A stretch of DNA of 64,000 nt from Oscillospiraceae bacterium (GTDB lineage Bacteria; Bacillota; Clostridia; Oscillospirales; Acutalibacteraceae): positions 68,533 through 132,532 of the forward strand of contig SVPE01000005.1 in the NCBI GenBank assembly GCA_015066015.1, read 5' to 3'. Shown piece after piece: positions 8,310 through 39,944 of the stretch. The notes under the pieces are model-generated. The model did no database searches, was not told where the DNA came from, and saw only the letters and a program-made list of their open reading frames with translations. How positions within the stretch are numbered: the stretch's first letter is position 1; the number at the start of each line of letters is the position of its first letter. Position numbers and translations under genes: made by a program.

Positions 8310-8334
8310 TTAAATAACGGCCTCCGGGCTTCAG

Positions 8335-8369
8335 AAAGGCATCTTCTTCGGAAGATGCCTTTCTTTATT
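8335..8369 (+). terminator. strong Rho-independent terminator of the 2,374-aa gene
   Basis: Perfect 12-bp stem AAAGGCATCTTC-ttcg-GAAGATGCCTTT followed by CTTTATT, 26 nt after the stop codon. Confidence 0.85.
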
Positions 8370-8412
8370 GACTGAAAAGAAAAATGATTACAGAAAACAT
8401 ATAATTTGGTAC

Positions 8413-8487
8413 ATCTTGTGGCAGTAGTGTCTTAAAACACAAGATATCGTTTTTGGTCCCTTTTACTAAAAGAGACCTCGTTTTTTT
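8413..8487 (+). terminator. two further terminator-like hairpins with T-runs
   Basis: ATCTTGTG-(17 nt)-CACAAGAT followed by ATCGTTTTTGG. Then GGTCCCTTT-tacta-AAAGAGACC (one mismatch) followed by TCGTTTTTTT. Confidence 0.45.
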
Positions 8488-8574
8488 GTCAAAATAACAG
8501 ATTTGTTAAACTAAACAAATTAAAATTAATACATCTATGCAAAATGTAGAATTAAAAAAAAATTAAAAAATATA

Positions 8575-8603
8575 TTGAAAATCTTGAGTTCAAATGATAT
8601 ACT
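8575..8603 (+). promoter_or_regulatory. sigma-A type promoter of the 10,378-aa gene (TTGAAA, 17 nt, TGaTATACT extended -10)
   Basis: -35 TTGAAA at 8575-8580 and -10 TATACT at 8598-8603, with TG at 8595-8596. It sits in a very AT-rich upstream region and leaves a ~135-nt leader. Confidence 0.55.
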
Positions 8604-8737
8604 TACTATAGTTATAGGTGTCTCTATGGGCGAATTGCACCCTTTTTTAGGGAAATTCGCTTTAAAAGCGTTATTTTTGACGCTGAGAAATCCTATTTTA
8701 GATCATATACAATCTTTCATTTAAGGAGGAAAATTTT

Positions 8738-11700: not shown

Positions 11701-14700
11701 AAAGCAGCTCCCATTCTGTAATGACGGTGCAAACTGTACAAATGAAGATCATTACTTCGACAGTAAAAAAGCATGGCATGTTAATGACTGGGACGATTTT
11801 TACAGAACGTTTGCTGTTGCAACCTGCGGTCTTCACGTTCCTCTCGCAGAGCTTGTTACAAAGAAATCTTTGTCCCCTGGTGACAGTGAAGCTTCAAACC
11901 TTTTCGGTGAAGTAGATATTCTTGCTGTTGGTAACGGTAGAGGTCTTGACGCTACACTGCATGCATCTGAACTTGGTGATGCTCTTTACGATCGTCTCTT
12001 TATTCCTCTTTACAGACTTCTTGGTATCGAAGGATTCTACAATGTAAATACTAATCCCGGTGGTTATCACAATAAAGCCGACATCAGATCAGCTTCCGGT
12101 TCCTATGCAAAGGGTAACGGTAGGGTTTCAGTCGGTTCAATAAAAGATTCCGGTGTTACACTTTGGAAGTATGTTCTTGAACCCATTGTTTATTGGTTAG
12201 AAAATACTCTCTTTGTATCTCCCGTTAAGACAATCGCAGAGCTTCTTCCTAACCTTCTTACTATGCTTGAGTATGACCAGCTTATTCCTAAGCTGAAAAA
12301 TATTAATGTTGATATTAATGCAACAATCAAGCCTATGGGAATTACTGTTAATCTTGACGTTACAGAACTGAACCTCTCACAGATCATTATGCCTCTTCTT
12401 GAGGGACTTGGTCTTAATCAGGAGAATCTTTCAAAGGGTATAAACGGTCTTTTGGGTGTTCTTTTAGGTGGTGAGCGAGTAACAAGCAAGCCAAATATGA
12501 ACACTACGACTGATAAGTGGCTGATGCAGGTTACAAAGGTTACCGAAGAAGATGAGTTTGGTAATAAGGTAACAGTTAATAAAACCAGCGATACCGAGCC
12601 TGCTGCATGGAAATCTTCAGCTGATGGTAATACTTATTATCTTAAGAATCCCGGACTTCTGACAGCAACTCTCTATGGCCTTATGGTTCAGGAAAACGAT
12701 CCAACCACAACAGAAAACGAAACACTCAACAATGCTTTCCTTGACTGGATTTTCCTCAATGGTGGAACAAAAGCTGAGATTCCACTTCAGATTCCTGTTA
12801 ACCGCTTTATGGCTACCGGCTCACTTAAGGGCGGTGACCATCCCACAGCAGAATCGATTACAATTCCCGGTGTTTTCAGCTCTGTAACTAACTATCATAT
12901 TTATGCCGAAGCCGGTACATCAATGCTTGTACTTCTTCGTTGGCTTCTTAACGACGGCACACTTGATTCAATTATGCCGCTTCTCAACGGTCTTATTAAG
13001 CCGACTGTTGACCCCGAAACAGGCAAGGAATCAAGCATACTTGATACAATCATTCCTCTTGTTGACGGTCAGGCTGATACCCTTATGGCTATCATTATCT
13101 GTTTGCTCAATGACTATGTAATTGGTTTTGAGTCTTTCCAGGATCCCGCGCAGAATACTAATGATTGGGGTAAATGGAACGCTGAAGGTACAGAATTTAC
13201 ACCATACCTCACTGATGGTGGTGCATCACAGTTTAAGTATGGTACAGTATTCCAGAAGTACCTTTCCGAAGGTAACAAGGATGTAACTGCCAATGAGCTT
13301 GCAGCAGGTTATGGTACAGGCTTCACAGATGCAGACCTTCTTGCAAAGGCAAACCTTGCAGTTGCAAATGTTGACAAGACTATTGCTAAGCTTGTTCCCA
13401 CACTCTTCGTTGCTCTTAAGGATACACTTCTTGGTGTTGATGCTATCCGTGACCTTGGCTTCGAAGCAGTTATTGAAAAGGCAGAAAAGGCTATCGCAGA
13501 AGGTAACCTTGATGCTGTTACACTTGAAACAGTTGTTCTCGATACAGTTATCGGTAATGACCTCGTTGATATGATTATGAACCTTGTCTTCGGTAACGGT
13601 CTTCCCACAAAGGCTAAGGATGCCGCAGGTGCAGCTATTCAGGCTCACACCGACGGTGAGACTATGACCCAGACCTACACCGACGGTAAGGGCAACACAA
13701 CTACTACAACATATTACATTACAGCTGGTAGCGAATCTGCACCTCTTGCTTACGATGCAAACGGCGACGTTGAAATCGTACGCCAGGTTAAGTATGCCCT
13801 TGATGCTGACGGTAACGAAACTGACACAATCGAAGGCTTCGTAGTTAACGAGGGTCTTCTTGGCGGTCTCTTTGCTGATCCTGAAAGCATTCTTAACAAA
13901 GTTCTCGGTGCACTTGGCGACTTCAACCTTGACATTTCTCCCGCAGGCTTCTACGGGCTCTTCTCAGATACCGCTTATGAAGAGAAGACAGGCACAACCG
14001 CTGCCTTCATTAAGACTGCAGGCGCCAATACACATCTTGCTACATGGCTCAAATCACAGGCAGAGAAATTCTCAGGCAAAACTCTCAGCTCACACGCCGC
14101 TACGAAAGCAGAGCTCAAGAATATGACCTGGGGTGATATCCGTGCACCTAAGGGCACAGTATGGTTCGATGAGAACACAACAGACGTTATCGAAAAGTTC
14201 AACCGCTTTGCTGAAATGCTCTGTGACCTTCTCTATCCCCTTAACCCTGTACTTGCATTCCTTCTTTCCGGTCAGGATATTACACTCTTTGACGAACTTA
14301 AGCTCCAGGGTGAAAACGGCTATTCAAAGGGTATTGTTGCAATTCTTGAAGCTCTTATGCTTGATGCAGCTTGCATGAGCCAGAATAGCTTCGATAACTA
14401 TGTTTACACTGCAGCTATAGGCATAAGTCCGATTGGTTATAAAAATGACGCAAACGTAAATGTTGATAACCTTTCAAGCGGTACAATTATTAAGGACGGA
14501 GAAACAATTACAAAGAGATTTGCTGTTACCAAGAACTCACCTCTCAAACCCTTACTTTATGCTATCGGACAGCTTCTCTTCGGTACAAGTGACGGCACTG
14601 TTGATGGTCTTCTTGACGCTCCTCTTACTGTTCTCTTCTCACGTCTTCCCAACATTGCATACAACCTTTATCTCTTCAAGGGTGAAAACGGTAAGAACAC

Positions 14701-17700
14701 ATGTAACTTCTCAATCGCAGTTAAGAACCTTATTGCTCCCGTAACAAAGGTTCTTGAGATTGTTGACCCTGTTCTTGCAAGACTTGTTAACCTTGATATC
14801 AACGAGCTTCTTGACTCATTCCTTGATATTGAATCACTTATTAACAATCTTATTAATGGCCTTGCAGGTCTTGATGAAGGCACAGGCTCCAGTGTTGCTA
14901 TCTTCGAATTCGGTAAGCTTGCAGCTGACTCTGCAACAGTTGACCTTAACGCAACGACATACCGTCATGGCGCTTCTAAATTCACAAGATTTTACGGTGC
15001 GCCCGGTAAATTCTTCATCACACTTGTAAGAACTCTTCTTACTAAGGATGTTGTCGGCGCAATCGGCGGCCTTGTTGAAGGTATATTCAATAAGGAAGGC
15101 GAAAACAAGACTCCTGAAGAGCTTGAAGCCGACCAGCGCGTAAGAGATATCATCACAATGATAGAAAACAACCTTTGTAAGCCCGACACAGAAAACAAAC
15201 TTGCCGGCGGTGCATACATTGACTATCTTACAAGTATTATAATTGACATCTTTACAGACTATCTGCCTGAAGAAGGTGCATTCTACTTCTACGAAATCAT
15301 CAACCGTGTTGATGAAGAGCTTATTAAGCTCGAAGACCAGATTGATGCTATGTCTCTTGACAAGTACGGTATCAAGCACGACGGTTATGATTGGGCAACA
15401 AAGCCTGTTGATGAAAACGGCAACGTTCTCTTCACAGAAGCTGACGTTAACGAAACAATCGAAAACCTTGACTATGTTATCCGTAAGGCTGTTCCTGATG
15501 TCCTTTCAACTCTTCAGTCAAACGGTGTTATCGGTGGAGATCTCGTTGCATCACTTCAGGGTGACGACGGACTCTGGGGTCTTCTTAAGGGTCTTGCTCT
15601 TGACTATGCTCTTAAGGATGACGGTCTTACATGGCTTGCAAATGCTATTATCGGTCTCTTCGGTGAAGGTGGCAGTACAAGCACAACAAAGATAATTCAG
15701 CAGGCTCTCAAGGCTGCCGGATTTGATATGACCTTCGATGCATTCATGTACAAGAAGGGCGCAGACGGTAAGATTGACAAGTCACAGCCTACGGCTATCT
15801 ATGACTACTTCACTTACGGCTTCTACAAGAAAGACGGAAAACTCCAAAGCGAAACCGGTAAGATGGACTGGTATTATCTTGATGCCGACCACAACAATAA
15901 GGCAGATGATATTAACGGTGACGGTAATATCGATAAAAACGATGAAGTCGAGCTTACATTTGTTCAGATTTATAAGAACCACAGCTATGAACTTTACGAG
16001 ACTGACGATGACGGTAACCTTGTAATTGTTGACGGTCAGCCCAAGAAGAAGGCTGTTCAGATTCAGATTACTGAAGAACGCGAAGAAAAGAACGCAGAAG
16101 GCGTTATCGAAAAGGTTACCTACTACAAGTATATCGTTCTTGACGATAACGGTGAAGAAACAGCAGAAGTTATCTGGCTTAATGAATCAGGTAAGACAGA
16201 GGTTGTTGACGGTACAGTTACCAAGAAGCTTGTAGCAGATACAAAGGACAAGAAGGTTCTTGATGAAGACGGCAACGAAACAAATGTAACTGTTTATGAA
16301 ACCGCTCTTCTTTCAACAGCATATCCGCAGGTTAAGACAGCTGAAGGCTATAAGTATACCTATACAAACGCAGATGGTGAAGTAAAGGAATACTATGGTG
16401 CATATCAGCAGATGACTGTTCTTGACAGCGGTGAAGACAATGACAAGGGTGAGAACATCTACTACACCCTTAGCCCCGTATACTCTGAAGACATCGGTGA
16501 ACGTGAGTGGTCATGGGATATCGACGATATAATAGCGGGCGAATCCGAATCAAGAGACGTATTTACTCTCAGAAAGGTTAAATTCATTAACACACTCTGG
16601 GATGTTCTTGAACCCTTTGCAGTTGTATTCTCAACACTCTTTGCAGGCGATGCTCTCAGACTCTTTGATACACTCAACATCGAAGGCGGATTCGGTTATG
16701 ACGATTACCTCCTTCCCTTGATGCGTGCATTCGGTCTTGATTCTATTATCGAAATGCTCGGCGCAGAAAAACTCAGCCAGCTCCAGACAAAGGATGCCGG
16801 CGGTAATCCCATTGAGCATCTTATGACAAGAGATGAGTATATGGCAAAGGTTTACAACGCAGACGGTTCAATCAATCCTGAAGGCGTTGGCTACACAGTT
16901 AAGAATGTAGTTAACTATATCTTCTACTTCGTTGAAATCCTTTGTAACTATCCTGTTGAAACACTTGCAAACGCACTTCCCACTCTCGCATACTTCCTGT
17001 ATGCTGACGGTCTTACATCAATTCTCAACGGTGTACTTGTTCCCGTTACAACTCTTACAAACAGACTCAATGAAATCATTGACCTTGATGTAAACGCAAT
17101 CGGTGCAGGTCTCATCGACTATCTTGCAACAGGTGACTGGGCAAACTTCCAGGAATCACTTGGCGGCTTCATGTACATTGATCCCGATACAGGTAATCTT
17201 GTAACAAACGTTGATGCAAACCTTAACCTCACATATTCAATTCTTTCACTCATTACAAACCTTGAATTTGACCTTTCAGGCATTGTTGGTGAAGATGATC
17301 CTTACGAAGGAAAGTACGGTCTCGTTCTCTTCCTTAATAAGGAAAATGAGCATATGGCTAAGCAGCTTCTTAAGGATGCAGCTGAGCTCGAAAAGAACGG
17401 CGGCGCTACAGCTGAGCAGATCAAGCAGATGCGTCAGCAGGCAAGAGACTGCCGTGCAGGTACCCTCAAGGGCTTCCTTAAGTCAATTGCAGCTCTCGGT
17501 GATCCCGTAAGCGAAAAGCAAGGCTTAGCAAATGAATACATTTATAAAAACTATGCTGATTATGTATACATCTCCTCAACAGGTTCTGTACACGTAAGTA
17601 AGGCAGAAGTTCTTATGTTCCTTCTTGACTTCATCTTCGAGAACAACACTCTCAAGGAAGTTATCGGTTCACTTCTCGGCTATGATCTTACAGATGAAAA

Positions 17701-35700: not shown

Positions 35701-38700
35701 GGTTCTTGCATTCCTTCTTACAAATGAAGACCTTGTGGTAACCGTTGAAAATAACGGTCAGAAGGCTCAGCTTACACTCAAGGGCGGTAACGCTTATGAG
35801 TCAGCTATCGTTCCCATCCTCTACCAGGGTCTCGGTCTTGAAGAAATCATCACCGGCACTAATAAGGCAAAGGTTGAATCCGCTGTTAAGGTTGATTCTG
35901 CAAATGCAGCAATTGAAGCAGTTGTTGACGCACTTCTTGTTGACCTTGTAGGCGCAATTAAGAAGGCTCCTCTCTCAACAATCCTTACAGTAGTAGGTAA
36001 CCTCGGTTACTTCATTGCAAACGACGACGTTGCAGTTGCAATCCAGAACCTTGTAGCTCCTGTACTCGGTATCGTAGATGCTCTCGGCGGCGTAATCTCC
36101 AGAACACAGCTTGATACTCTTATCGAAGGTCTCGCTAAGATTGAGCTTCCCAACGGTAAGATGCTCAACATCACCAACATTATCAACATTGCCGGCGACA
36201 ATGGTGCAATCCTTGTTGACCTCATCAACGGTCTCCTTCCCGGTATCGAGATTAAGGATGATCAGGGTAATGTTATCCAGGTAATCAATGCACTTCCCGA
36301 CACCTTCTTCCTTGACCTTGCTAAGGCAGCTGTTAAGGTAACAGATCCCGAAACAGGTCTTGTTGAAGGCGAAACAGATGCAAAGACATGGACCACCGAT
36401 AATGGCGGCGCAATCATGTACGTACTTTCAACCGTACTTACAACTGACTTCCTCAACATCCTTTGCGATGTAATCGGTATTGAAGAGAAGACAGAAGACG
36501 GTAAGGACAACATGGTATACGGTATCATTACTTCACTTGCAGGTTCTGCAGATGCAGTAGTTGATCTCCTTCTCAAGCTTCTCAACAGATATCTTGTTGA
36601 ATACAAGGCATATGTACAGCCTGAAATCAATAAGACAAAGATTAACTATGAAGGCGGCGAAGCTGCTCACAGACAGTTCAATCAGGTTATTTCAAACCTT
36701 GACGGACTTATCCCCGTAATCTTCGAACTTCTTGTTAAGCAGGAAGGTGTAAACAACCTTGCAGATCTCGTATATCCGTTATTTGTTAAGGATGACATCG
36801 CTAACCTCCTTGTAAGTGCTATTGCTAAGCTTCTTGCAGGTCTTCCCGCAGAGACAATTACAATGATTGAAGATCTTGTAACTGATCTTGCAAACGTCAA
36901 GAATGCTACAGTTAAGGATGCAGACGGCAACGAAGTTGAAGTATTCAGCATCGCACCTACAGCATTCAAGGCTGACAACTTCAAGTCTAAGCTTGACGAA
37001 TACATCGGCGATGCAAAGACTTGGGCAGAAGTATGGGCAGCACACAGTGAAGACAAGAAGGATGAAAACGGTAATATCGTTTATGCTAAGGATGCAGACG
37101 GCAAGACAGTTGTTGATGCTGAAGGCAATCCTGTAGCAGAAAAGGTAGCATCCGCATATGCTTGGAACATCAAGACTGTAGATGACTTCATCAATCTCAT
37201 CTGTGACTTCCTTGCACCTCTTGACTGCGTACTTAACCTCCTTCTTTCAGGCGGTATGGTAAGAGCAGACTTTGACACAAATCGTCCTAACGAGACATTC
37301 ATGGGCAAGAGACTCGCTGTATTCGATGATATCGCAATCAGCGGCGGTAGCGGTTACAACTACGCAATCATTCCTCTCCTTGAGCTCTTCGGTGTTGATG
37401 CTGATACTCAGGAAGAGTACATGATCGCAGTTGAAACCAATTACAACAGCGCACTCTACCCCGTACTCACAGCACTCTTCGACAGAGTTGATGAAATCCT
37501 TACAGCTCCTGTTGAAAGTCTCCTCGATATTCTTGCAAACCTCTGCTATGCCCTTGGCACAGGCAGCGTTGCAACAATCGTTGAAAATCTCATTGCTCCT
37601 GTAAACAATGTAATTGCAGCAGTTGATGAAATCTTCCCGATCGCAATTCCCATCGACGTAGGCGCTCTCATCAATGGTCAGGCACTTAAGGTTTACCTTG
37701 GTGAAGCACATCCCGGTATCGATTCAGGTATCACCTTCAAGCTCGAAGGCAATGATGTAGCAGCACTTCTTGAAGATGTAATTGCCGGTATCAACATCGG
37801 CGGTGCATCACTCGAAGTTGACCTCGATTGGATGGCACTTGCAGCTGCAGCCGCAGCAGACGTAAACGGTGATGGTAAGGGAGACTTTGACGGTTCAAAG
37901 ATGAGCACCAAGTGGGATATCTACAACGGTGGCGCATACAAGAACCTCAAGGGTGATGCAGGCGACACATTCGTAACACTTATTAAGACAGTTCTCACAG
38001 AAAAGAACTGGAATGCTCTTAAGGAAGCTCTTGGCCTTGATCTCGGTGACTTCAACACAGTTGTTGACGGCATCATCAAGGATCCCACAAAGCTTATCGA
38101 CCTTATCGGCAGTATCTTCAGTATCGAAGGCGTTCACTACATTCCTGTACAGAACAGAAAGGTAGAAGCTAAGCCTTACGACTACACAACATACCTCTAC
38201 ATGACAGAGCAGAATGCTGACATTATTGCTCAGAACATCGACAAGCTTGTAAATGACATCCTTCAGGCAGCCGGCTTCGGTTCACTCAAGGGTCTTATCG
38301 GTACACTTCTCACTAACAAGCTTGCAGGTGACCTCATCGGTAAGATTACAGGTCTCCTCGGTGGCGATACAGTTGGTCCTATCCTCGGAACAATTGCAGG
38401 TCTTACCGGCGGCGAAGATCCGATCCTCGTTGTATACGATGCAGCAGGTAATGTTACAAAGCTTAACCTTGACCTCACAGTTAAGGGTTATGCAGATGCA
38501 TACGACAATTACGCTAACCATAACAGAGCCTTTGCTCAGGAACTCCACAGAGTTGCTAATGCAAACGGCACATGGGCAGATGTAAATGTTGCTAACATCG
38601 ATTGGGGTGTAAACGGCACAGTTACAAGCTTCGCAAATGCATTCGCATCAATCCTCAATCCTCTCAACAGTGTTCTCGAACTTCTCCTTGTTGGTGAAGG

Positions 38701-39874
38701 CAAGTCCCTTGGCTTACTTCCCGCTAAGGACGAAAACGGCGAATACAAGAAGGATGCAAACGGAATGCCTGAATGTGTTGTAAGCATCAAGGGCGGCAAC
38801 GGTTACGATTACGCAATCATTCCTCTCCTTGAAGCATTCGGTCTCAAGTCAGGCGAAGTTATGAACGTAACAGCTTATAACAACGCTTATAAGGCAGATA
38901 ACTCCAAGCTTATGGGTTACATCCTTGAGAGAGTTGGCTTCTTTGCTGACAGACTTCTCAACAAGCCCATCGACGGTCTTCTTACAATCCTTCCCAACCT
39001 TGCATACTTCATTGCAAACGAGGGTGTCGGACTTGTAGTCAGAAACCTTGTAGCTCCTGTTTACTCAATTCTTGGTCTCCTCGGTCTTGACCTTATGGAA
39101 ATGCTTAACCTCGGCAATCTCCTTGGCAGCATCGAAATTCCCATCGACATCCTCGGCGAGAAGCTTGGTCTCCACCTTCCCGATATCGATTGGATGAAGC
39201 TTGCACAGGAAGGCGCAAGTGAAGTAGTAGAAGTTACAACTTCACGTTCACAGGCTGCTAACTCCTTCGTCAATGCACAGAGACTTACAAACCAGGCAGA
39301 CGTTGATAATTACATTAAGAATTATCCCGTAGGCTATGAAGGCAGATCCAACAAGCTCACTCAGACCTTCATCGTAGCAGATAAGGGCGACGTTCTTACA
39401 CTTGTCTTCACATGGCTCTTCGAGCTCTTCGAGGATCCTGACAACCAGAACGCTCTTGTTGAGTGGATTGCAGCAACCTTCAACCTTCAGTCCGGCGCTA
39501 AGGAAACTGTAAGATATGCTATCAACCAGCTCTTCCTTAAGGCTAAGATTTATAACGCACCTGATATCATCGTAGGTGGTCTCTTCTCAGCTCTCGGTGT
39601 AGTACTTGTATTCAACGAAGCTCTCAAGGGAAATATTACTGAAGTTGTTAACATCTTCAAGGAACTCTTCGGTGCAGCAGGTAGCGGCGGATGCGCATAC
39701 TCAAGCATTGCTAAGATCATGGAAGATCTTACCGGTGTATGGGATGACACAATCGGTTCCGATCAGGATCATGAGGACGCAGTTGAAGACGCTGAAGAAA
39801 GCCTTAACTGGTTCCAGAGACTTATCAAGAAGATTAAGGAATTCTTCCAGAAGATTTTCAGTATCTTTAAGTAA
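8738..39874 (+). CDS. giant secreted modular protein, 10,378 aa, unknown family
   Basis: The 31,137-nt frame has no stop. SD AAGGAGG lies upstream of the ATG and the signal peptide is MKVGKKALSLLLAVIMIMSTMSVSFSVFA/ATN. Codon usage is consistent throughout and 15 internally homologous modules are present. A possible C-terminal TM segment (IIVGGLFSALGVVLVF) is followed by the amphipathic tail LNWFQRLIKKIKEFFQKIFSIFK. A terminator lies 39 nt downstream. Confidence 0.93.
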   Translation: MKVGKKALSLLLAVIMIMSTMSVSFSVFAATNTTADIYSAIVMHYDSLMDAIDKATVADESKRDTSGVPVKDGSEWVVKRDTLNGGWLAVSRAIASYAKGTVATNKTYVDLVEKIKLDAAGYAGSNGHPVADYNAILEYYKFGSTATGTFATQETVTLNIGTGFDLLAFKDVASIVDKTYSKATLKFTPKGELATGYTLSTADDISFTTEDFVEAGTDVAVIKGVLEQCVAADAFKTWFNAGTLTTQQLADMTNLLALFDTTMALAGLGYTEAEIWDHYVAPEVGKTYTETKAWYDNAGARAEAEPKADAYKERIDNLMATSTTAMTAEQLRDHKRAVETVIQEMDNDQFSVLVYQIVNEKEADYIGAAGRKVETYLKELGVKVGQAYAPLYADELVALATSVDSLKTKNDVELAEGQAWEDTEEYRANLNWLEAASELISNIDNYVLTGATFADIAESKTAADNAITEALYNKVASKVGELSLEIYGSTYREDKAAMDSIMANTILVGRSYSAVYEIAQEFIGYYNKALSLKNTASMQAVYESIYPDGLDAYEAYVHTLKAAAAKAYYDAISIVDTYISEAGKVAYYNFEVIISKANAISSSDGTYSVVGAFLADDPAYVPATGDVKPEDISALYNKIYTSGGYLDKAYAFKTGLNNLRNLAYTNANEQVVDKKLLAYILRQENVTGSAYAWESMLGNVSVDKIREFVNDIELVQQTGIETKNGKITAGGIEDLMSLAVEDLDKILISNDLGTLLNSLTAKENEETGATVGFLGVWGFDYTFKNPEGGTTTVKAGDPCKNLREFLINTIVGLLWGGSLQTTLFKLLSETVGGAVYNFGGAAFDVVVATKDGWQWLPEILHMAIPVMPHDYVENWTNPLTGDTNKTYQQIAQDYYVDWYKYFTGAAFGATGHAEYDYTDILYVLDKAPIDKKCNDDTTEWRSYWKGFTYADNISNDNRTEYRPGNVITEGSSAGQALDARYWGEANGQKQLPFCNDGANCTNEDHYFDSKKAWHVNDWDDFYRTFAVATCGLHVPLAELVTKKSLSPGDSEASNLFGEVDILAVGNGRGLDATLHASELGDALYDRLFIPLYRLLGIEGFYNVNTNPGGYHNKADIRSASGSYAKGNGRVSVGSIKDSGVTLWKYVLEPIVYWLENTLFVSPVKTIAELLPNLLTMLEYDQLIPKLKNINVDINATIKPMGITVNLDVTELNLSQIIMPLLEGLGLNQENLSKGINGLLGVLLGGERVTSKPNMNTTTDKWLMQVTKVTEEDEFGNKVTVNKTSDTEPAAWKSSADGNTYYLKNPGLLTATLYGLMVQENDPTTTENETLNNAFLDWIFLNGGTKAEIPLQIPVNRFMATGSLKGGDHPTAESITIPGVFSSVTNYHIYAEAGTSMLVLLRWLLNDGTLDSIMPLLNGLIKPTVDPETGKESSILDTIIPLVDGQADTLMAIIICLLNDYVIGFESFQDPAQNTNDWGKWNAEGTEFTPYLTDGGASQFKYGTVFQKYLSEGNKDVTANELAAGYGTGFTDADLLAKANLAVANVDKTIAKLVPTLFVALKDTLLGVDAIRDLGFEAVIEKAEKAIAEGNLDAVTLETVVLDTVIGNDLVDMIMNLVFGNGLPTKAKDAAGAAIQAHTDGETMTQTYTDGKGNTTTTTYYITAGSESAPLAYDANGDVEIVRQVKYALDADGNETDTIEGFVVNEGLLGGLFADPESILNKVLGALGDFNLDISPAGFYGLFSDTAYEEKTGTTAAFIKTAGANTHLATWLKSQAEKFSGKTLSSHAATKAELKNMTWGDIRAPKGTVWFDENTTDVIEKFNRFAEMLCDLLYPLNPVLAFLLSGQDITLFDELKLQGENGYSKGIVAILEALMLDAACMSQNSFDNYVYTAAIGISPIGYKNDANVNVDNLSSGTIIKDGETITKRFAVTKNSPLKPLLYAIGQLLFGTSDGTVDGLLDAPLTVLFSRLPNIAYNLYLFKGENGKNTCNFSIAVKNLIAPVTKVLEIVDPVLARLVNLDINELLDSFLDIESLINNLINGLAGLDEGTGSSVAIFEFGKLAADSATVDLNATTYRHGASKFTRFYGAPGKFFITLVRTLLTKDVVGAIGGLVEGIFNKEGENKTPEELEADQRVRDIITMIENNLCKPDTENKLAGGAYIDYLTSIIIDIFTDYLPEEGAFYFYEIINRVDEELIKLEDQIDAMSLDKYGIKHDGYDWATKPVDENGNVLFTEADVNETIENLDYVIRKAVPDVLSTLQSNGVIGGDLVASLQGDDGLWGLLKGLALDYALKDDGLTWLANAIIGLFGEGGSTSTTKIIQQALKAAGFDMTFDAFMYKKGADGKIDKSQPTAIYDYFTYGFYKKDGKLQSETGKMDWYYLDADHNNKADDINGDGNIDKNDEVELTFVQIYKNHSYELYETDDDGNLVIVDGQPKKKAVQIQITEEREEKNAEGVIEKVTYYKYIVLDDNGEETAEVIWLNESGKTEVVDGTVTKKLVADTKDKKVLDEDGNETNVTVYETALLSTAYPQVKTAEGYKYTYTNADGEVKEYYGAYQQMTVLDSGEDNDKGENIYYTLSPVYSEDIGEREWSWDIDDIIAGESESRDVFTLRKVKFINTLWDVLEPFAVVFSTLFAGDALRLFDTLNIEGGFGYDDYLLPLMRAFGLDSIIEMLGAEKLSQLQTKDAGGNPIEHLMTRDEYMAKVYNADGSINPEGVGYTVKNVVNYIFYFVEILCNYPVETLANALPTLAYFLYADGLTSILNGVLVPVTTLTNRLNEIIDLDVNAIGAGLIDYLATGDWANFQESLGGFMYIDPDTGNLVTNVDANLNLTYSILSLITNLEFDLSGIVGEDDPYEGKYGLVLFLNKENEHMAKQLLKDAAELEKNGGATAEQIKQMRQQARDCRAGTLKGFLKSIAALGDPVSEKQGLANEYIYKNYADYVYISSTGSVHVSKAEVLMFLLDFIFENNTLKEVIGSLLGYDLTDENTSDAELLDEIITNVFNNPNALVNLIVSLLTDYDVKQIVGVELKEIEAENHFEFYEDAGFDTHEEVLEHNKNLAAGEEKVTEISRVKTSATIDNLDALVGKILNLSILKDMLAKEDDPATAEDESGAFNKLFGITTDDTITLQGIVDAVFETYLYDDKGLNSIMDMLIGLLGGEGASQIVNIVLDILAGSGYDLTPEAFKTNVPQLAATIDKAEDLNEDGKISWDEVVKANSKYQYVVKNADGEVTATYFADEKGLTKLDHDGDAATEEIDVIADMVQKQTERKVDKQVTDETTGETSTVKVTEYKYTYSVKNAAGELEDKEVWLEEAGKTEWIETPDDPETDENEEVKHLVEAEMYDTDKQKTAVKISATWGLQTRDDFVDVLWNCIKPLAPIFAALFCEGELTLFDKISIKGAAGYDGFVLPLIKALGIPALRANKNADGTWSDDLTTANENEGEYFLKADKLVDYATYKATVYGSDGILGTGDDNGKIMLTTITDALFALVDSLCARPVNTLLTIIPYLAHFIESDGVDAILDNLLVPVTTITEMVKDIYKIDLLGMVKDLLRGLIKDMNDKAGETSDSTKPEDQATTGGAAAAYVLNVIEESEADAGQSAGEAIISELTDPAPALDLSGGDGSNYKFKDIIVELLEGVSINGTALNTIIDPEFIFLNLASIAWLPGVMKADNSGWDRYPSQKITVTINADRRGGSHSLSDAAVYTVDRESVLIKVLNDIVFTDGIRDLIGDLIKFDFGKDAMTTLTEEDSNYLLTVLLYGVFEDPEALERLLIDLLSWYEIEYEDARVKKTDVENAYDLGTTEPIDYEAAGLDKAQMEKLPEDFDSLIGKIVPAVIGMLPADALGDIKLQGANLEEMVHNLLADLMMDKEVTNDEGVKEMKYGFATQLVELLVNLLGGNATVSMIVGLLPTIIEGMDVELKDFKKVNTAFNTYFADYDTWAEAYEGLKTIKKYVAPDEPAADYVAPAYEEGTLNLYAVDENGKPVPEYAVDENGANIPVYANGTKVTDAWDNVWYTAAGTPANDEETALENTYVVKTVDGKIVYKYQYELKLTNTNSFGIATYQDVLDLVSQILAPFAPVLRFLLTEADLVALDGVHLTGGDGYDRFIIPLFEMLGVDKYIGAQKFLNKTDFAALDNAAFTAKVVEYIDGLISMVVNTPIQTIVDLVPELVFFVYSDGLAQAVEQLVAPLLTLVDMVNDITAKEVVIEGRDDALVALDIVALITDLINDNLMKPNNIAEIDGFYGDNGLITRLLTAEGLEALLQGLLDNANAWIYAYEYTIPKDMVEGATEDEVVTVYFNSADLDGATHIPTNGNGKDMTFTLTAVPDKNKTPIDLGLDKDGDGTADAAPIKGIFRWILEKTCKIEKVDTIRTYGAVNGKVWGVKANRADTLVQIISETLLGGGMLTSLLNSFGVEIKEGDILDTILKALTGENKYQLFVVLLTYFNEYDVETMLMDYLSFEKVEYAYETYVEGTRLTQRKLRRAIKKLDGSILTVVPELIQMLEEVEFIKMLLDKIGGYHGQSLKDLVHELLMAYAFNDQTMNQLMGLLIGLLGGEDLAGTLNTVLPLVNDIVGIDITPYGFYEATTSDAIKAYMEAAFAAFPAGPVLDDKGEPVLNDDGTPKMTTVKDDFTWADLAKYYTVYVYSYNDVTKTTKYEYTYEKDGKTEYYYVDEAVAADENGKYILKDGDNVYELTATQEVTKDFYSYETNYMYSKNADLHGTPVEGVDGKTWFGYEQATDTEGNLSWADEAKGIPEIKTVTKTVNKVDAEGNNIVVDGVIQTEEISEQVRATRVNALEGDAAFAWGIDAKTSYEDKADKFIDILAGIVVPLEGVLNFLLRGDSLYILPDEKTENSGVLEFYGNNGYENVIMPLFQALGVDQVGGTIVSAADYEAGRGTALTLTAITDGIFSIVEALTDGPLEYIFTLLPSLSYFISCNGPEIVLNNLLSPVLALLNLADPIVGDLLDDLLGATLSGVFADYMPEDIDFTETTNYKAPIYVEVDGTGEFEGQMVKVPARTDSTTVTFRDETYYIDAGTDEGEIIEGKYVVTTETVDGELVPDFEEYNAYALTDLLKICGENGDNLIKILNKLVGPLLLAEDATEEDKAAFQLLPETFFEDYAKHAITINKQTANADFYYYYEDAEGNRIKIKDDLYSSDMGEIKEARYVVDWFKVDIADSAVYLLDNVLSESLLNEIARIAKIDINKEGDILGGILKNLIEGNFNGLVVADIITALFENYTIKYNELYGEYITPDHSHLNTLETQDDKDKAARVPGQLDTIIENALPAIAPILSDLLAPKEGAEPTILNDIFDNYDTIANDAAVADLYEVVEYLLDDLVFSDELVNTLAALIINLIGTTDIVGTIIEYFGLTGIKLDPQSYLATVKKAYENKTEMADAVAALAGIIGEAKTWADVVKNDTTPLYAYEYVDGVNEDGTAKKFTVYLADENATTYELTKTEGEGEEAKEVKYEFALTQVLDADKNRVVKAEYNKEENGENVADVTWGVNAASDKKTAFIKALAVIVEPLFPVLQLVLQGKTLTLIGHDKAAYEPVNMVEYNADGVATTIIDDSRTGEEIGNGYVELMGVNGYEELLVPILDAIGGLEAFGAYSADNTDGIMTVAEFCAINNAYDMLSYIVNVVFGFVNNLVEAPVTYLATYLPSLLYFIGSDGVYNAVHSVLQLVNALIAVAEPLIGANGIKLSDTIGLPLDLLMLKLDDSTVPGKVQKTVDGKFVYIAKGDENKEEIYLDKAGLTKNGETEIEAVMVDGMVTVEGLCSLINGLIKKDNLINKDIILKLAGYLGDYAVINTVKRNATSALYDTKLDAYVNMNGDIVAKKDGDIWVDAYGNATTKPATGSQMITIVGDTKYTLTGLLQFALADGLVGGLVDTSEMEGILKTIIDNVMGPDATKNVTEILIKLLNKYVITYKAIEEPAEALVPAATDYAKYGVEKTEVQLALGNIQKLLPEVLDLLGVGSLDKLVADNLYTDKVVNGIIAMLVGLLGGLDEKTWGTITDILGYVKDIVGLNIDITPAAYAAEGNKLAPFINAVDVKRDVVDEDGNVTGEERIPVADLTWADVAEFYTKYEYRYMVEAAKPAEGVEGEEGYKAPVEAKYVTVWFADADLNGKDHTPTTGDYAGKTFKLEKVETVYYGYEYTIPAVGEEGAEDYVAAKTETLKSTDSELTEYKVGEVTYALTAKGEVERVHNTKVESDFVWGVAEGATLNEKADKLVAVVIDLLKPLDGVLELLLAGGVYEFDGTTYGDSLGAFEEINIMGGSGYNYAIIPLLEALSVPADKILTQADYEATIATKGTLGYILETVLHTVNDNLDKPLDFVLGLFANLAYTISKNGATTFVSNLIAPLSEVIEAIEGVLPVAIKVNLMALMDGGSVAEILLGSDVALKGAEVGLTLDLDCDTLEALLAKVLAKFVAGFDITISFKDIAAKSAKLDEMGDIEYFNSKVDPKWDICLGIPGKNIQGDTAATIITLLAMVITTDNIDALLQMLNLDINTLDKPIADLINKAIESPDVLIGAVIKLLANNYDVVGVIEAMVFYFLGEAEYDYSNIKGGLLNGGHSAVNSAISKFDKMVNNLIPKLLKLLGNDLDKPVEIIADIYNGLGEDAADADIKAVVDYLLNDLVFNDKMMNQLLGLIVGLLGGIDEKTFKTIVDIVKEVLGIDLSPAGVAAISEANGGKVAAFINAHEASDKDAGLTWADIANAHAWYEYKYCVVEAKEAVGTEGEEGYVPAVEAKYVTTHFADADLDGEDHTPTTGDYAGKTFKLEKVTKDDKHVTKVILEETWNISDKDDFLGILYEVTAVVEPLLAFLFKGENINILIDDFGLKGSDGYTHALIPLAKALHIEIEEDVTKFDDANEMLKEVVNGIFGLVEDIEKAPISTILEVLGSASYFIANDGVALVINNLIAPVTGLISIFEKKTTVEVNGEIVEKSEGITMADINALLKSLIKMDLNDITGIAGADGSKLVSMINGLLPKVYLVDEATGEKTRLAEPLPAKFFEIMSTYAINYDSMTNAQKKDAANIRTLEVTEWSVDKADVLMYLLSTVCSDDFLAFIGNLAKAEEGTVLGDVIYGLAGDEDLVINIISMLLNEYKLVYNKYAQVDITKINVDPKDPLTDTNLAQAIQAIDGLVPAIIGLLVKDADSLKGLVENLVAGADLGNLLMNLLVPLLAGLDIDEILGYVKEFSNLNVKLDPSAWTADADSEIAKFILAADEDKDGKVTWADVEAFYTQYEFTYTIPAVGAEGEEGYVAAKTETVFKPAGTTKITIGEGKDAKTYDLTKVNEYEYTYTVTTGEGEEAKTEEKTIILDKDDYTTYDVDGNEETADVEVTLSKPVQKSKMVSEYDWNIDNFDGLKNFAVDLLKPLDVVFELLLAGANIIVAPDTKTDVEPYPAEITVRGGDGYNFAIIPLLEALGATGLKTQAEYEAQAATDGSHLKYVLDVLFAEVEEILATPVSQLMSRLANLFYFLGNNSANDLVDNLLAPVNTLIAEVDPIFPLAINIDVSKIGTDDIIGLYLGKAHDGVEAGIHVNVESTAIATLLNDLLAGIEINGTKLGLSLDLNWLEIAAKMAKTEDATKQSTTGAKIATVASKMDYKSYENVVGNTEYADGKYYNIQGDVVDTFITLLQVLLTDNNTEALKNLIEGLLKDAPQEVKDILDDILSDPDAIEKLVGVVVLLLTGRGEMEDYPLAFAYKFLGELNFNYKNDEINAAISKFDKMVVREAVGILKMFGTPAADKKEEDYNFLEKMVVGVSDKENATLADIVDWLLGEFAFTSENFTGLMEILNNVLADAITAELADILATILPIRLMPYEFAEATGNAKLQAYVGKAVTKAVDALVFADDATDEDKAKAIDEAKKAVTWADVRAAYATSAEKDGKTVWTYNYGEGDNAFTWGVEDKDTFVGAILDLLKPLNPILDFLFAGKELAFEIEGVKLWGADGYANAIVPLLNALGLKQLGVEMPATAADSTTALGYIVDALLGTTEAKGAVDAICEAPITSILKIVGNLSYFIANGNLDELIQNLLAPVFGLLDLAESLVSREDLDTIIEGLAKITLPGGKALNITNIINIAGAEGEGLVALINELIGGIRVYEKEIVVEDGKNVSKIVVYDKAYVEDHPEFDWWAVDKTDADGNVVYETDEEGNEVLDKDGKPVAEQVYYKVLQMINLLPDDFFKQFAKYVVEESELNGVAVTTVGADVDSWTINVGDALMYVLSTVLDYDFFETILKKVGLDLSQGIGATVLTMADKENELIDVLVMLLNDYKVVYSKVEQATLPADVTTPYTNFGQDKDGNDLLDNENTTNAVAALDPIINTVVAMLADGKTLSDLVNGLIADADLANIIMNALVPVLAGLDKNENLDLDAILSYVYELTNIKLETLAPTLWDDDFGSALVTFIDGSETWAEVEAKYTQYEYSYTADGAEEATVVYKPEAGRHDYTVTVGEGENAKTYDLRPVLDGTTQKSKMLSEFNWGIEDLNDLVPLVCDLLAPLDIVFQILLSAKPIIALEDDVTSDRNDIRIMGGYGYNYAIIPLLEAFGADGLLTQEEYEEKAAADGSHLKYILETLIGEVEEILETPLNELLSRLANLFYFIGSDGINAIADNLLAPLNTLIEEVDDLFPLAIRIDVAADEILGLYLGKEHEGIPAGITVNVSGADLAALINDLIGDLTIGEIHLNLHLDLDWTEIAAKMAKKDTDGKILTTGTKQVYNLGTVKNPAVADLVNLTGDAANAIVTLLDTVLTEENCKNIYTLVTGLLGDMDPTLKSVIEELIGSPDSIKGIVAAVVLILTGEYEVAELDYIFKYLGVLTFAKSADAKTAVESLDRVLIKAVPVIIELLAKDVTDTENFLYKLYHGTNKNATLDNIVNYLLNDFLFTDSMMNTITGALLGILKNLGTDITDILKDFLGIDLAPVAFAAASGNAQLIAYVGNAATWADVVAAHTDADGNLAAVFTDVAGKEAWVGAILDMLKPLEKVLAFLLTNEDLVVTVENNGQKAQLTLKGGNAYESAIVPILYQGLGLEEIITGTNKAKVESAVKVDSANAAIEAVVDALLVDLVGAIKKAPLSTILTVVGNLGYFIANDDVAVAIQNLVAPVLGIVDALGGVISRTQLDTLIEGLAKIELPNGKMLNITNIINIAGDNGAILVDLINGLLPGIEIKDDQGNVIQVINALPDTFFLDLAKAAVKVTDPETGLVEGETDAKTWTTDNGGAIMYVLSTVLTTDFLNILCDVIGIEEKTEDGKDNMVYGIITSLAGSADAVVDLLLKLLNRYLVEYKAYVQPEINKTKINYEGGEAAHRQFNQVISNLDGLIPVIFELLVKQEGVNNLADLVYPLFVKDDIANLLVSAIAKLLAGLPAETITMIEDLVTDLANVKNATVKDADGNEVEVFSIAPTAFKADNFKSKLDEYIGDAKTWAEVWAAHSEDKKDENGNIVYAKDADGKTVVDAEGNPVAEKVASAYAWNIKTVDDFINLICDFLAPLDCVLNLLLSGGMVRADFDTNRPNETFMGKRLAVFDDIAISGGSGYNYAIIPLLELFGVDADTQEEYMIAVETNYNSALYPVLTALFDRVDEILTAPVESLLDILANLCYALGTGSVATIVENLIAPVNNVIAAVDEIFPIAIPIDVGALINGQALKVYLGEAHPGIDSGITFKLEGNDVAALLEDVIAGINIGGASLEVDLDWMALAAAAAADVNGDGKGDFDGSKMSTKWDIYNGGAYKNLKGDAGDTFVTLIKTVLTEKNWNALKEALGLDLGDFNTVVDGIIKDPTKLIDLIGSIFSIEGVHYIPVQNRKVEAKPYDYTTYLYMTEQNADIIAQNIDKLVNDILQAAGFGSLKGLIGTLLTNKLAGDLIGKITGLLGGDTVGPILGTIAGLTGGEDPILVVYDAAGNVTKLNLDLTVKGYADAYDNYANHNRAFAQELHRVANANGTWADVNVANIDWGVNGTVTSFANAFASILNPLNSVLELLLVGEGKSLGLLPAKDENGEYKKDANGMPECVVSIKGGNGYDYAIIPLLEAFGLKSGEVMNVTAYNNAYKADNSKLMGYILERVGFFADRLLNKPIDGLLTILPNLAYFIANEGVGLVVRNLVAPVYSILGLLGLDLMEMLNLGNLLGSIEIPIDILGEKLGLHLPDIDWMKLAQEGASEVVEVTTSRSQAANSFVNAQRLTNQADVDNYIKNYPVGYEGRSNKLTQTFIVADKGDVLTLVFTWLFELFEDPDNQNALVEWIAATFNLQSGAKETVRYAINQLFLKAKIYNAPDIIVGGLFSALGVVLVFNEALKGNITEVVNIFKELFGAAGSGGCAYSSIAKIMEDLTGVWDDTIGSDQDHEDAVEDAEESLNWFQRLIKKIKEFFQKIFSIFK
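11950..12295 (+). repeat. module core 0 (degenerate first copy)
   Basis: ..LYDRLFIPLYRLLGIEG .. VSPVKTIAELLPNLLTMLEYDQLIPKL; matches the IPL..LG and LP.L...L halves of the later cores. Confidence 0.5.
14198..14775 (+). repeat. module core 1
   Basis: FNRFAEMLCDLLYPLNPVLAFLLSG..LQGENGYSKGIVAILEALMLD..LPNIAYNLY..KNLIAPVTKV. Confidence 0.75.
15908..15943 (+). other. EF-hand / dockerin-like 12-residue Ca-binding loop inside the giant ORF
   Basis: DINGDGNIDKND fits D1-x-N3-x-D5-G6-x-I8-x-x-x-D12. Confidence 0.5.
16583..17078 (+). repeat. module core 2
   Basis: WDVLEPFAVVFSTLFAG..IEGGFGYDDYLLPLMRAFGLD..LPTLAYFLYADG..GVLVPVTTL. Confidence 0.8.
18341..18376 (+). other. EF-hand-like 12-residue loop inside the giant ORF
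   Basis: DLNEDGKISWDE fits D1-x-N3-x-D5-G6-x-I8-x-x-x-E12 and runs into the recurrent (T/S)W(A/D)(D/E)V motif. Confidence 0.5.
18830..19354 (+). repeat. module core 3
   Basis: WNCIKPLAPIFAALFCEG..IKGAAGYDGFVLPLIKALGIP..IPYLAHFIESDG..NLLVPVTTI. Confidence 0.8.
20927..21340 (+). repeat. module core 4
   Basis: VSQILAPFAPVLRFLL..LTGGDGYDRFIIPLFEMLGVD..VPELVFFVYSDG..QLVAPLLTL. Confidence 0.8.
23188..23626 (+). repeat. module core 5
   Basis: LAGIVVPLEGVLNFLLRG..FYGNNGYENVIMPLFQALGVD..LPSLSYFISCNG..NLLSPVLAL. Confidence 0.8.
25274..25819 (+). repeat. module core 6
   Basis: LAVIVEPLFPVLQLVLQG..LMGVNGYEELLVPILDAIGG..LPSLLYFIGSDG..SVLQLVNAL. Confidence 0.8.
27415..27856 (+). repeat. module core 7 (A subtype)
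   Basis: VIDLLKPLDGVLELLLAG..IMGGSGYNYAIIPLLEALSVP..FANLAYTISKNG..NLIAPLSEV. Confidence 0.8.
29153..29542 (+). repeat. module core 8 (B subtype)
   Basis: VTAVVEPLLAFLFKG..LKGSDGYTHALIPLAKALHIE..LGSASYFIANDG..NLIAPVTGL. Confidence 0.8.
30422..30457 (+). other. EF-hand-like 12-residue loop inside the giant ORF
   Basis: DEDKDGKVTWAD fits D1-x-D3-x-D5-G6-x-V8-x-x-x-D12 and is fused to the TWADVEAF module-boundary motif. Confidence 0.5.
30841..31270 (+). repeat. module core 9 (A subtype)
   Basis: AVDLLKPLDVVFELLLAG..VRGGDGYNFAIIPLLEALGAT..LANLFYFLGNN..NLLAPVNTL. Confidence 0.8.
32485..32899 (+). repeat. module core 10 (B subtype)
   Basis: ILDLLKPLNPILDFLFAG..LWGADGYANAIVPLLNALGLK..VGNLSYFIANG..NLLAPVFGL. 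Confidence 0.8.
34211..34636 (+). repeat. module core 11 (A subtype)
   Basis: VCDLLAPLDIVFQILLS..IMGGYGYNYAIIPLLEAFGAD..LANLFYFIGSDG..NLLAPLNTL. Confidence 0.8.
35651..36094 (+). repeat. module core 12 (B subtype)
   Basis: ILDMLKPLEKVLAFLL..LKGGNAYESAIVPILYQGLGLE..VGNLGYFIANDD..NLVAPVLGI. Confidence 0.8.
37181..37633 (+). repeat. module core 13 (A subtype)
   Basis: ICDFLAPLDCVLNLLLSG..ISGGSGYNYAIIPLLELFGVD..LANLCYALGTG..NLIAPVNNV. Confidence 0.8.
38621..39091 (+). repeat. module core 14 (A-like, last copy)
   Basis: FASILNPLNSVLELLLVG..IKGGNGYDYAIIPLLEAFGLK..LPNLAYFIANEG..NLVAPVYSI. Confidence 0.8.
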
Positions 39875-39912
39875 GTTTCACGGTTAACAAATAACCGATT
39901 AAACAAAAATTA

Positions 39913-39944
39913 CTCCCTGCCTCAATCGAGGCGGGGAGTTTTTC
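39913..39944 (+). terminator. Rho-independent terminator of the 10,378-aa gene
   Basis: CTCCCTGCCTC-aatc-GAGGCGGGGAG (one G-U pair) followed by TTTTTC. Confidence 0.8.

Follow-up and report, generated by a model that had tools for sequence, protein, structure and literature searches.

Fifteen diverged copies of an undescribed core domain in a giant, putatively surface-tethered protein of gut Clostridia

Core domain copies and the family they define

A 64,000-nucleotide (nt) stretch of the genome of an Oscillospiraceae bacterium (assembly GCA_015066015.1, contig SVPE01000005.1, positions 68,533 to 132,532; hereafter, the window) contains an uninterrupted giant open reading frame (ORF) at 8738..39874, which encodes an acidic protein of 10,378 amino acids (aa) and 1.13 MDa with a calculated pI of 4.27. 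This protein carries fifteen diverged copies of a core domain that is absent from the curated family libraries and forms part of a larger, repeated module. Judged by its sequence features, the giant protein is probably an extracellular stalk or adhesin that is tethered to the membrane and composed of units of this new domain. Giant tandem-repeat surface proteins are a well-known class; what is new here is the undescribed composite, predicted helical module and an unusual, highly conserved amphipathic tail. Unless stated otherwise, all features described below are on the plus strand of the window.

In order to avoid circularity, a hidden Markov model (HMM) of 171 positions was built only from 931 homologous domains of other genomes. 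All 15 copies were detected by this external HMM at full length, R1 with 46.6 bits (independent E-value [i-E], 1.6e-16) and the other 14 with 93–152 bits; the highest score among 300 shuffled segments of 400 aa was 4.0 bits. When an HMM was built from nine of the copies themselves, 14 copies were found at i-E values of 1e-22 to 1e-67 and R1 weakly at 2e-3. No core match was found in the other ORFs or frames of the window.

The core envelopes are 158–219 aa long. Core R1 (aa 1008–1214; 11759..12379) is the most diverged copy. The others, delimited by HMM matches and the core alignment, are R2 (aa 1810–2028; 14165..14821), R3 (aa 2606–2793; 16553..17116), R4 (aa 3351–3551; 18788..19390), R5 (aa 4051–4218; 20888..21391), R6 (aa 4801–4972; 23138..23653) and R7 (aa 5497–5707; 25226..25858), the last with a long insert in its beta-hairpin. 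These are followed by R8 (aa 6208–6389; 27359..27904), R9 (aa 6792–6949; 29111..29584), R10 (aa 7354–7530; 30797..31327), R11 (aa 7903–8067; 32444..32938), R12 (aa 8479–8650; 34172..34687), R13 (aa 8961–9132; 35618..36133), R14 (aa 9468–9648; 37139..37681) and R15 (aa 9949–10123; 38582..39106). The start-to-start spacings of R1 to R8 are 2406, 2388, 2235, 2100, 2250, 2088 and 2133 nt, and those from R8 onward are 1752, 1686, 1647, 1728, 1446, 1521 and 1443 nt. The fourth motif, GY...IPLL..A.G, was matched as a regular expression at nt 16694, 18947, 23336, 25505, 27572, 29273, 30989, 32606, 34355, 37352 and 38801, and it was located from the translation and the core alignment in four more diverged copies at about nt 11987, 14318, 21047 and 35792. 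The consensus over the 931 domains begins with wg..d...F..aL...L.Pl.plL..LL.G, continues with i.i.G..GY..gl.PlLEALG and ends with Pv...l.lLPNl.YFin.nGl...v.NLl.pv.

A first-pass annotation of this DNA had described 15 periodic copies of six ordered motifs, spaced about 2.1–2.4 kb apart for the first eight and 1.4–1.8 kb for the rest. The external HMM (15 of 15 copies, with shuffled controls at or below 4 bits) bears out the copy number and periodicity, and the six motifs are reproduced by the 931-domain consensus. All 15 hallmark positions that it gave lie within about 15 nt of those measured here, regular expressions for motifs 4–6 gave matches where it had placed them, and the spacing came out at 2.09–2.41 kb and then 1.44–1.75 kb.

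No Pfam family was found on the whole giant protein searched in three chunks, on 14 cores searched singly at E ≤ 5, or on 11 homologues. Isolated matches on the cores were at chance level (SAM_5, 0.0022; SHOCT, 0.012), and no family recurred among the 14 cores. NCBIfam searches of the giant, of the protein encoded upstream of it and of a four-copy homologue (P0086) returned nothing relevant. FIVAR (PF07554) and GA modules had no Pfam match on the whole giant. RHS/YD, RTX, glucosyltransferase, protease and translocation domains had no match in Pfam or NCBIfam, and no toxin was among the Foldseek matches. The earlier remark that the signature was not recognised from any named Pfam family thus agrees with the Pfam, NCBIfam, PDB-sequence and Foldseek (PDB and BFVD) searches. 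The core HMM does not map onto an annotated family; instead, an exhaustive search of 1.84 billion representatives yielded 624 clusters at E ≤ 1e-3, including 332 at E ≤ 1e-30. The core signature is new to curated libraries, yet it is not confined to this genome.

Almost all of the best 150 of the 624 representatives are 1,100–7,700 aa long with 2–14 copies. The 931 domains come from 171 fetched proteins, which most often have four copies and at most 14, so that the giant's 15 copies are the most seen. Searches for homologues with a word index gave only 4 and 3 matches, mostly fragments on short contigs. The core positions conserved across the family are G, P, Y, F and L together with one E and one N, and none is a residue of catalytic type; this is not an enzyme signature. 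We define the new family by four ordered motifs (WG-F-LxPLxxLLxxLLxG, GxxGYxxxxxPLLEALG, PxxxLxxLPNLxYFIxxxG and NLLxPV) within about 170 aa, occurring at least twice in a protein that has both a signal peptide and a putative C-terminal anchor, all of which are found in the giant.

Human and ruminant guts are rich in Oscillospiraceae, Acutalibacteraceae and related Clostridia, most of which are uncultured. The giant gene alone occupies 31 kb. The family comprises more than 600 clusters, and the few named members seen are annotated as 'hypothetical protein' of Eubacterium sp. and of Oscillospiraceae and Clostridia metagenome-assembled genomes (MAGs), without a Pfam or NCBIfam domain. A new domain model would provide an annotation handle for hundreds of very large dark proteins. 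A giant-gene survey of Clostridia and Oscillospiraceae (bioRxiv 10.1101/2023.11.21.568195) reported proteins with RCC1, Listeria-Bacteroides, YG or dockerin repeats, and this survey and a megaplasmid paper together cover other Clostridia giants with RCC1, Listeria-Bacteroides and S-layer/MBG repeats. The core domain family is described in neither of them. The surveyed proteins resemble the giant in mammalian gut habitat, taxon, size class and extracellular interpretation, but the core domain is none of the RCC1, Listeria-Bacteroides, YG or dockerin repeats.

Module architecture, predicted structure and age of the repeats

The cores account for 26% of the giant protein. They lie in modules of 480–800 aa, which together form the bulk of the protein and consist of a helical pre-core of about 136 aa, a variable beta-rich insert, the core and a post-core region. 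The pre-core, with the signature LLxDxxFxDxxxNxLxxLLxGLLGG ... DLxPxAF ... TWADV, is found 5' of 13–14 cores. It was detected before R3 at 15443..15754 (i-E 1.8e-9), R4 at 17960..18388 (5e-43), R5 at 20195..20515 (1e-7), R6 at 22181..22597 (8e-40), R7 at 24548..24991 (8e-35), R8 at 26591..26929 (1e-24), R9 at 28466..28891 (3e-48), R10 at 30134..30466, R11 at 31904..32353 (1e-40), R12 at 33695..34003 (7e-8), R13 at 35222..35596 (1e-47), R14 at 36671..37036 (3e-7) and, weakly, R15 at 38231..38587 (0.013). A relationship between pre-core and core was rejected (hhalign probability, 2%). The insert between them is beta-prone, rich in D, E, K, T and Y and 0–220 aa long, with a composition that varies greatly; a YD/Rhs reading of the YxYxxDG-like inserts was rejected because it lacks Pfam support.

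Three loops of the EF-hand/dockerin type match the strict pattern DxDxDGxIxxxE (aa 2391, 3202 and 7229), against 0.045 expected by chance. DINGDGNIDKND (15908–15943) lies in the insert between the pre-core and core R3. DLNEDGKISWDE (18341–18376) and DEDKDGKVTWAD (30422–30457), the latter an intact loop at the end of the pre-core before R10, occupy the site of the degenerate 'TWADV' motif of other modules. The Pfam model EF-hand_7 scored 16 bits on the giant (E 0.016), below its 30-bit cut-off. The loops are unpaired and degenerate in other modules, and a general calcium-binding role appears unlikely since only 3 are intact here and 11 occur in 510,000 residues across the family.

In the last eight modules (27359–39106), two core subtypes alternate: R8, R10, R12 and R14 form subtype A (39–58% identical), and R9, R11 and R13 form subtype B (32–44%), with which R15 has only a loose affiliation. 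The alternation produces super-repeats of about 1,000–1,150 aa and indicates that the C-terminal half grew by duplication of a two-module unit of that size. In the inserts of modules 8 and 9, 84 nt (27095–27178 and 29006–29089) are 88% identical in DNA, compared with 60–74% for the cores. This stretch encodes FADADL[ND]G[KE]DHTPTTGDYAGKTFKLEKV, and its identity points to a local event of more recent date, either a duplication or a gene conversion.

Core R12 was modelled with AlphaFold2 (AF2) using the 14 paralogues as the alignment. The model (predicted local distance difference test [pLDDT], 77; predicted template-modelling score [pTM], 0.66) has seven helices and one beta-hairpin, and GGxGY lies at the hairpin-to-helix junction in the best-predicted part. 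A 483-aa unit comprising the pre-core, core R13 and the post-core was predicted to be mostly helical with a few short strands (pLDDT 68, pTM 0.65), and this pTM suggests that pre-core and core pack as one body. Foldseek gave no match for the core or the unit in PDB or for the unit in BFVD (best E 0.11–1.0, TM-score ≤ 0.25), and only generic helical solenoids such as CRM1 appeared below significance. A profile search of PDB sequences with the core likewise gave no match, its best E of 0.16 being to designed helical proteins. Helical bundles are hard to match and the models are of only moderate confidence, so the core might be a very diverged member of a described family or fold whose link the tools used have missed. 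We regard this as quite unlikely in view of the structural and profile results above and of the lack of a recurrent Pfam or NCBIfam match for the 14-copy HMM, for single copies and for whole homologues. The core was flagged as a candidate new fold for structure determination.

The core copies share 17–58% pairwise protein identity, and the best pair of DNA repeats in the gene is 74% identical over 300 nt. The giant gene contains no near-identical DNA repeats, which makes a collapse of repeats or a recent amplification unlikely. When 185,579 species genomes were scanned with the peptide pattern GY[ND][YF]AIIPL, 58 loci were obtained, all in MAGs, which are labelled Acutalibacteraceae, Oscillospiraceae, Ruminococcaceae, Ruminococcus, Faecalibacterium, Eubacteriales or Clostridia. 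Many of these MAGs have names that refer to gut samples from humans, cattle, sheep, goats, deer or buffalo; the closest orthologues come from Acutalibacteraceae MAGs. Full-length orthologous loci have 8–10 copies each, one of them 12, and loci cut by contig ends have 4–5; the distance from the match to the gene end is the same as in the window. Fifty-four orthologue fragments are collinear with aa ~5130–10378, that is, the C-terminal half of about 5,200 aa, at identities from 86% down to ~30%, and module order is unchanged over this length even in orthologues only 30–40% identical overall. Orthologue identity often exceeds that of paralogous copies, which indicates that most duplications are older than the divergence of these species.

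Against four orthologues, dN/dS was 0.20–0.22, alike in cores and linkers. The most conserved 24-aa windows across orthologues are the GGxGY..IIPLLEALG hallmarks (72–88%) and the extreme C-terminus (85%), compared with 48% overall. The core copies are old duplications under purifying selection, as the first-pass annotation had proposed: their age is apparent from the low protein identity, the 74% ceiling in DNA and the collinear order in 54 orthologues, and the constraint from dN/dS and the conserved hallmark windows.

Long repetitive genes in MAGs can be mis-assembled, and the ORF could in principle be an assembly artefact or a decaying, pseudogene-like frame. This is extremely improbable. 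The 31-kb frame is open and equipped with expression signals: a promoter-like site, TTGAAA-17-TATACT with TG (8575..8603; a consensus match only), in the 428-nt intergenic region; a Shine-Dalgarno sequence, AAGGAGG (8723..8729), 8 nt 5' of the ATG; and, 3' of the ORF, an intrinsic-terminator-like hairpin of 12 bp, including 8 GC, followed by a T-run (39912..39939). Repeat collapse is unlikely, since even the most similar DNA repeats reach only 74% identity over 300 nt. The C-terminal half is collinear in the 54 independently assembled orthologues, and dN/dS against four orthologues is about 0.2.

Termini of the giant protein and the upstream partner

The giant begins with a Sec-type signal peptide, consisting of MKVGKK, a hydrophobic core and VFA|A (8738..8824), which is one of only two segments with a Kyte-Doolittle (KD) hydropathy of at least 2.0. 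The following N-terminal region (aa 30–1007; 8825..11758) is non-repetitive and without a family match, and one protein (P0008) is the only one that aligns with it, at 27% identity. The second segment, APDIIVGGLFSALGVVLVF (aa 10274–10292; 39557..39613), is the only internal one and lies about 100 aa from the end. The protein terminates in a cationic amphipathic helix, SLNWFQRLIKKIKEFFQKIFSIFK (39800..39871), with a net charge of +5, in contrast to the protein pI of 4.3. At 0.76, the helical hydrophobic moment of the final 22 residues, NWFQRLIKKIKEFFQKIFSIFK, is the highest in the protein (99th percentile, 0.50). The C-terminal 255 aa are 54% identical across orthologues, and the terminal helix is 85% identical, being almost invariant in orthologues that are otherwise 30–40% identical.

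Among the best 150 family representatives, 111 have a signal-peptide-like N-terminus, and at least 112 end in an aromatic/basic amphipathic helix (..PNGFIxFFQKIxxFFKNLF). In at least 12, a transmembrane (TM) helix followed by a basic cluster (KKKK) forms the C-terminus instead. Compared with an Ebh-type anchor, the giant has the signal peptide, one C-terminal hydrophobic segment and the amphipathic helix, and a clear TM helix with KKKK is seen only in some relatives. The interchange of the TM-plus-basic anchor with the amphipathic helix suggests that the C-terminus would hold the protein at the membrane and that the acidic module chain and the N-terminal region would face outward. The terminal helix is a candidate for a new type of C-terminal signal for anchoring or sorting.

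About 20 further segments reach KD 1.6–1.9, mainly core helix 2 and the NLLAPV helix. Their coincidence with conserved core helices, together with the strongly membrane-seeking helix at the protein end, would fit a membrane-active, toxin- or transport-like protein in which the core helices (LLxPLxxVLxxLL, NLLAPV) insert into a target membrane or the cell's own, or line a lipid conduit. However, these segments carry 1–4 charged residues and a central proline, and KD 2.0 is reached only by the signal peptide and the one C-terminal segment. No toxin, pore-forming or lipid-transfer domain was found in the Pfam, NCBIfam, PDB-sequence and Foldseek searches, and no immunity-like or secretion-system genes were found near the giant. 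We therefore consider membrane activity of this kind very unlikely.

The gene directly 5' of the giant on the same strand (1185..8309) encodes a secreted protein of 2,374 aa with Listeria-Bacteroides repeats (Flg_new / InlB B-repeat), as identified with Pfam. It is named 'DUF4198 / InlB B-repeat protein' at NCBI and has many CxxC-type Cys clusters. Its C-terminus, CTCACH..WGAIFRFFHKIIKLF..CCGNPD, is a tail of the giant's type flanked by Cys clusters, and three giants (P0044, P0080 and P0088) themselves have this Cys-flanked version. Homologues of the partner with the same tail (26–28% identity, E 1e-48 to 1e-76) are located directly 5' of giants at loci L061/L062 and L063, so that the arrangement is found in three genomes, namely that of the window and two others. 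Among the 544 ORFs of all fetched loci, the amphipathic tail was found only in giants, upstream partners and one other secreted protein. Such a cationic amphipathic helix at the C-terminus, common to giants and partners, may be a new way to hold giant proteins on a Gram-positive surface.

A predicted stalk or adhesin and its genomic setting

From these features, we infer that the giant is located at the surface, is tethered by its C-terminus and serves as a structural or adhesive protein and not as an enzyme. In the proposed arrangement, the giant would be exported by the Sec pathway and tethered to the cell through its C-terminus by the hydrophobic segment and the strongly cationic terminal helix, the TM helix followed by KKKK serving as the tether in relatives. 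The chain of helical modules, in which the cores would be the structural units, and the unique 1,000-aa N-terminal region would extend outward from the cell to form a long stalk, a spacer or an adhesin. The giant probably acts together with the upstream Listeria-Bacteroides-repeat protein. If such surface fibres exist, they are likely determinants of attachment to particles or the host and targets for phage or immune recognition.

Several observations weigh against this assignment. No homologue of known function was found, and the surface location is predicted from sequence features only. No LPXTG-like motif is present in the C-terminal 110 aa, the protein ending in ...KEFFQKIFSIFK, and SLH, CWB2, LysM, choline-binding and GW domains had no Pfam match on the giant. 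The segments at KD 1.6–1.9 may hide a membrane activity, and the absence of a fold match is weaker than it sounds, since the models are of moderate confidence (pLDDT 68–77) and based on shallow paralogue alignments. Moreover, the conserved partner neighbour was observed in only three genomes, and downstream synteny is kept only in the 6–8 closest genomes.

The modules might also be ligand-binding units of a multivalent binder of, for example, dietary or host glycans, mucus or other cells, with the GGxGY loop and the variable beta-rich inserts as binding surfaces. This reading, which differs from a stalk or adhesin only in emphasis, is consistent with the GGxGY..IIPLLEALG window showing the highest conservation within each module when orthologues are compared, with the great variation of the inserts in length and composition, and with the gut habitat and the large Listeria-Bacteroides-repeat or FIVAR neighbours typical of adhesins. 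On the other hand, searches of 12 family proteins revealed no carbohydrate-binding or adhesin domain. The conserved Gly, Pro and hydrophobic residues fit turns and packing and not a polar binding site, and the equal dN/dS of cores and linkers reveals no diversifying hot spots at this resolution. A primary role in binding is thus rather unlikely, and the tethered stalk or adhesin is preferred.

In design, the closest analogue of such a protein is Ebh of Staphylococcus. Ebh consists of FIVAR-GA helical repeats, has a mass of about 1.1 MDa and a 126-aa module, and carries a C-terminal membrane anchor. The giant is similar in its megadalton size, N-terminal export signal, long tandem array of predicted, mainly alpha-helical units and acidic, putatively extracellular rod-like design; some relatives have the C-terminal TM helix with basic residues, and one family member adjoins a FIVAR giant protein. 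It differs from Ebh in that it has no FIVAR/GA match and its module is composite and four to six times longer (480–800 versus 126 aa). In addition, its copies are far more diverged, most family members end in an amphipathic helix and not a TM helix, and the family is found in uncultured gut Clostridia. Fibrillar adhesins (Bap, SiiE, LapA, and the Rib/alpha-like and Listeria-Bacteroides types) are also giant secreted tandem-domain proteins common in gut bacteria, and the upstream partner gene is of this type (Flg_new). However, their stalk repeats are beta-sandwiches, whereas those of the giant are predicted to be mainly helical and match none of these families; moreover, the giant lacks LPXTG and a C-terminal signal of the type I secretion system.

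For the tail, an analogy is offered by PBP5 and PBP6 of E. coli, which are anchored to the membrane by C-terminal amphipathic helices. Like them, the giant appears to be an exported protein with a terminal helix of very high hydrophobic moment and a basic polar face, but their sequences are unrelated to its tail, and the terminal helix could equally be a recognition signal rather than an anchor.

Taken further, the core/pre-core module, the near-invariant tail and the Listeria-Bacteroides-repeat partner might constitute a megadalton apparatus of the cell envelope that has so far gone unrecognised in uncultured gut Clostridia, in which a helical-module fibre of new fold, attached by a new sortase-independent mechanism, links cells with one another, with particles or with the host. 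This is a tentative proposal, less likely to be right than wrong.

The proteins encoded on either side of the giant gene correspond exactly in sequence to MBE6773311.1 and MBE6773313.1. A functional link to the downstream genes (GH3 and others) was rejected because their synteny is confined to the 6–8 closest genomes. The intergenic region 5' of the giant (8310–8737; 428 nt) is AT-rich, with a terminator-like hairpin for the upstream gene at ~8334–8370 and long A/T runs 5' of the promoter-like site. No tRNA or Rfam element was found across the window. Minus-strand ORFs of 150–350 aa within the giant gene (14834–15379, 23588–25375 and 26666–29314) are probably spurious frame-shadow ORFs of a long gene with biased composition.

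Elsewhere in the family, a common four-copy member of 2,581 aa with a TM helix and KKKK tail is preceded by a divergent response regulator. The gene starting 14 nt 3' of this member (L059, 17653–18606; L060, 12479–13432) encodes a protein of 317 aa that has a hydrophobic segment at its N-terminus and lacks a Pfam match. Other members adjoin two CotH-family genes and YfhO (L064, 5578–9352) or a FIVAR protein of more than 3,268 aa and Lgt (L065, 1–9785), which are further envelope-related contexts.

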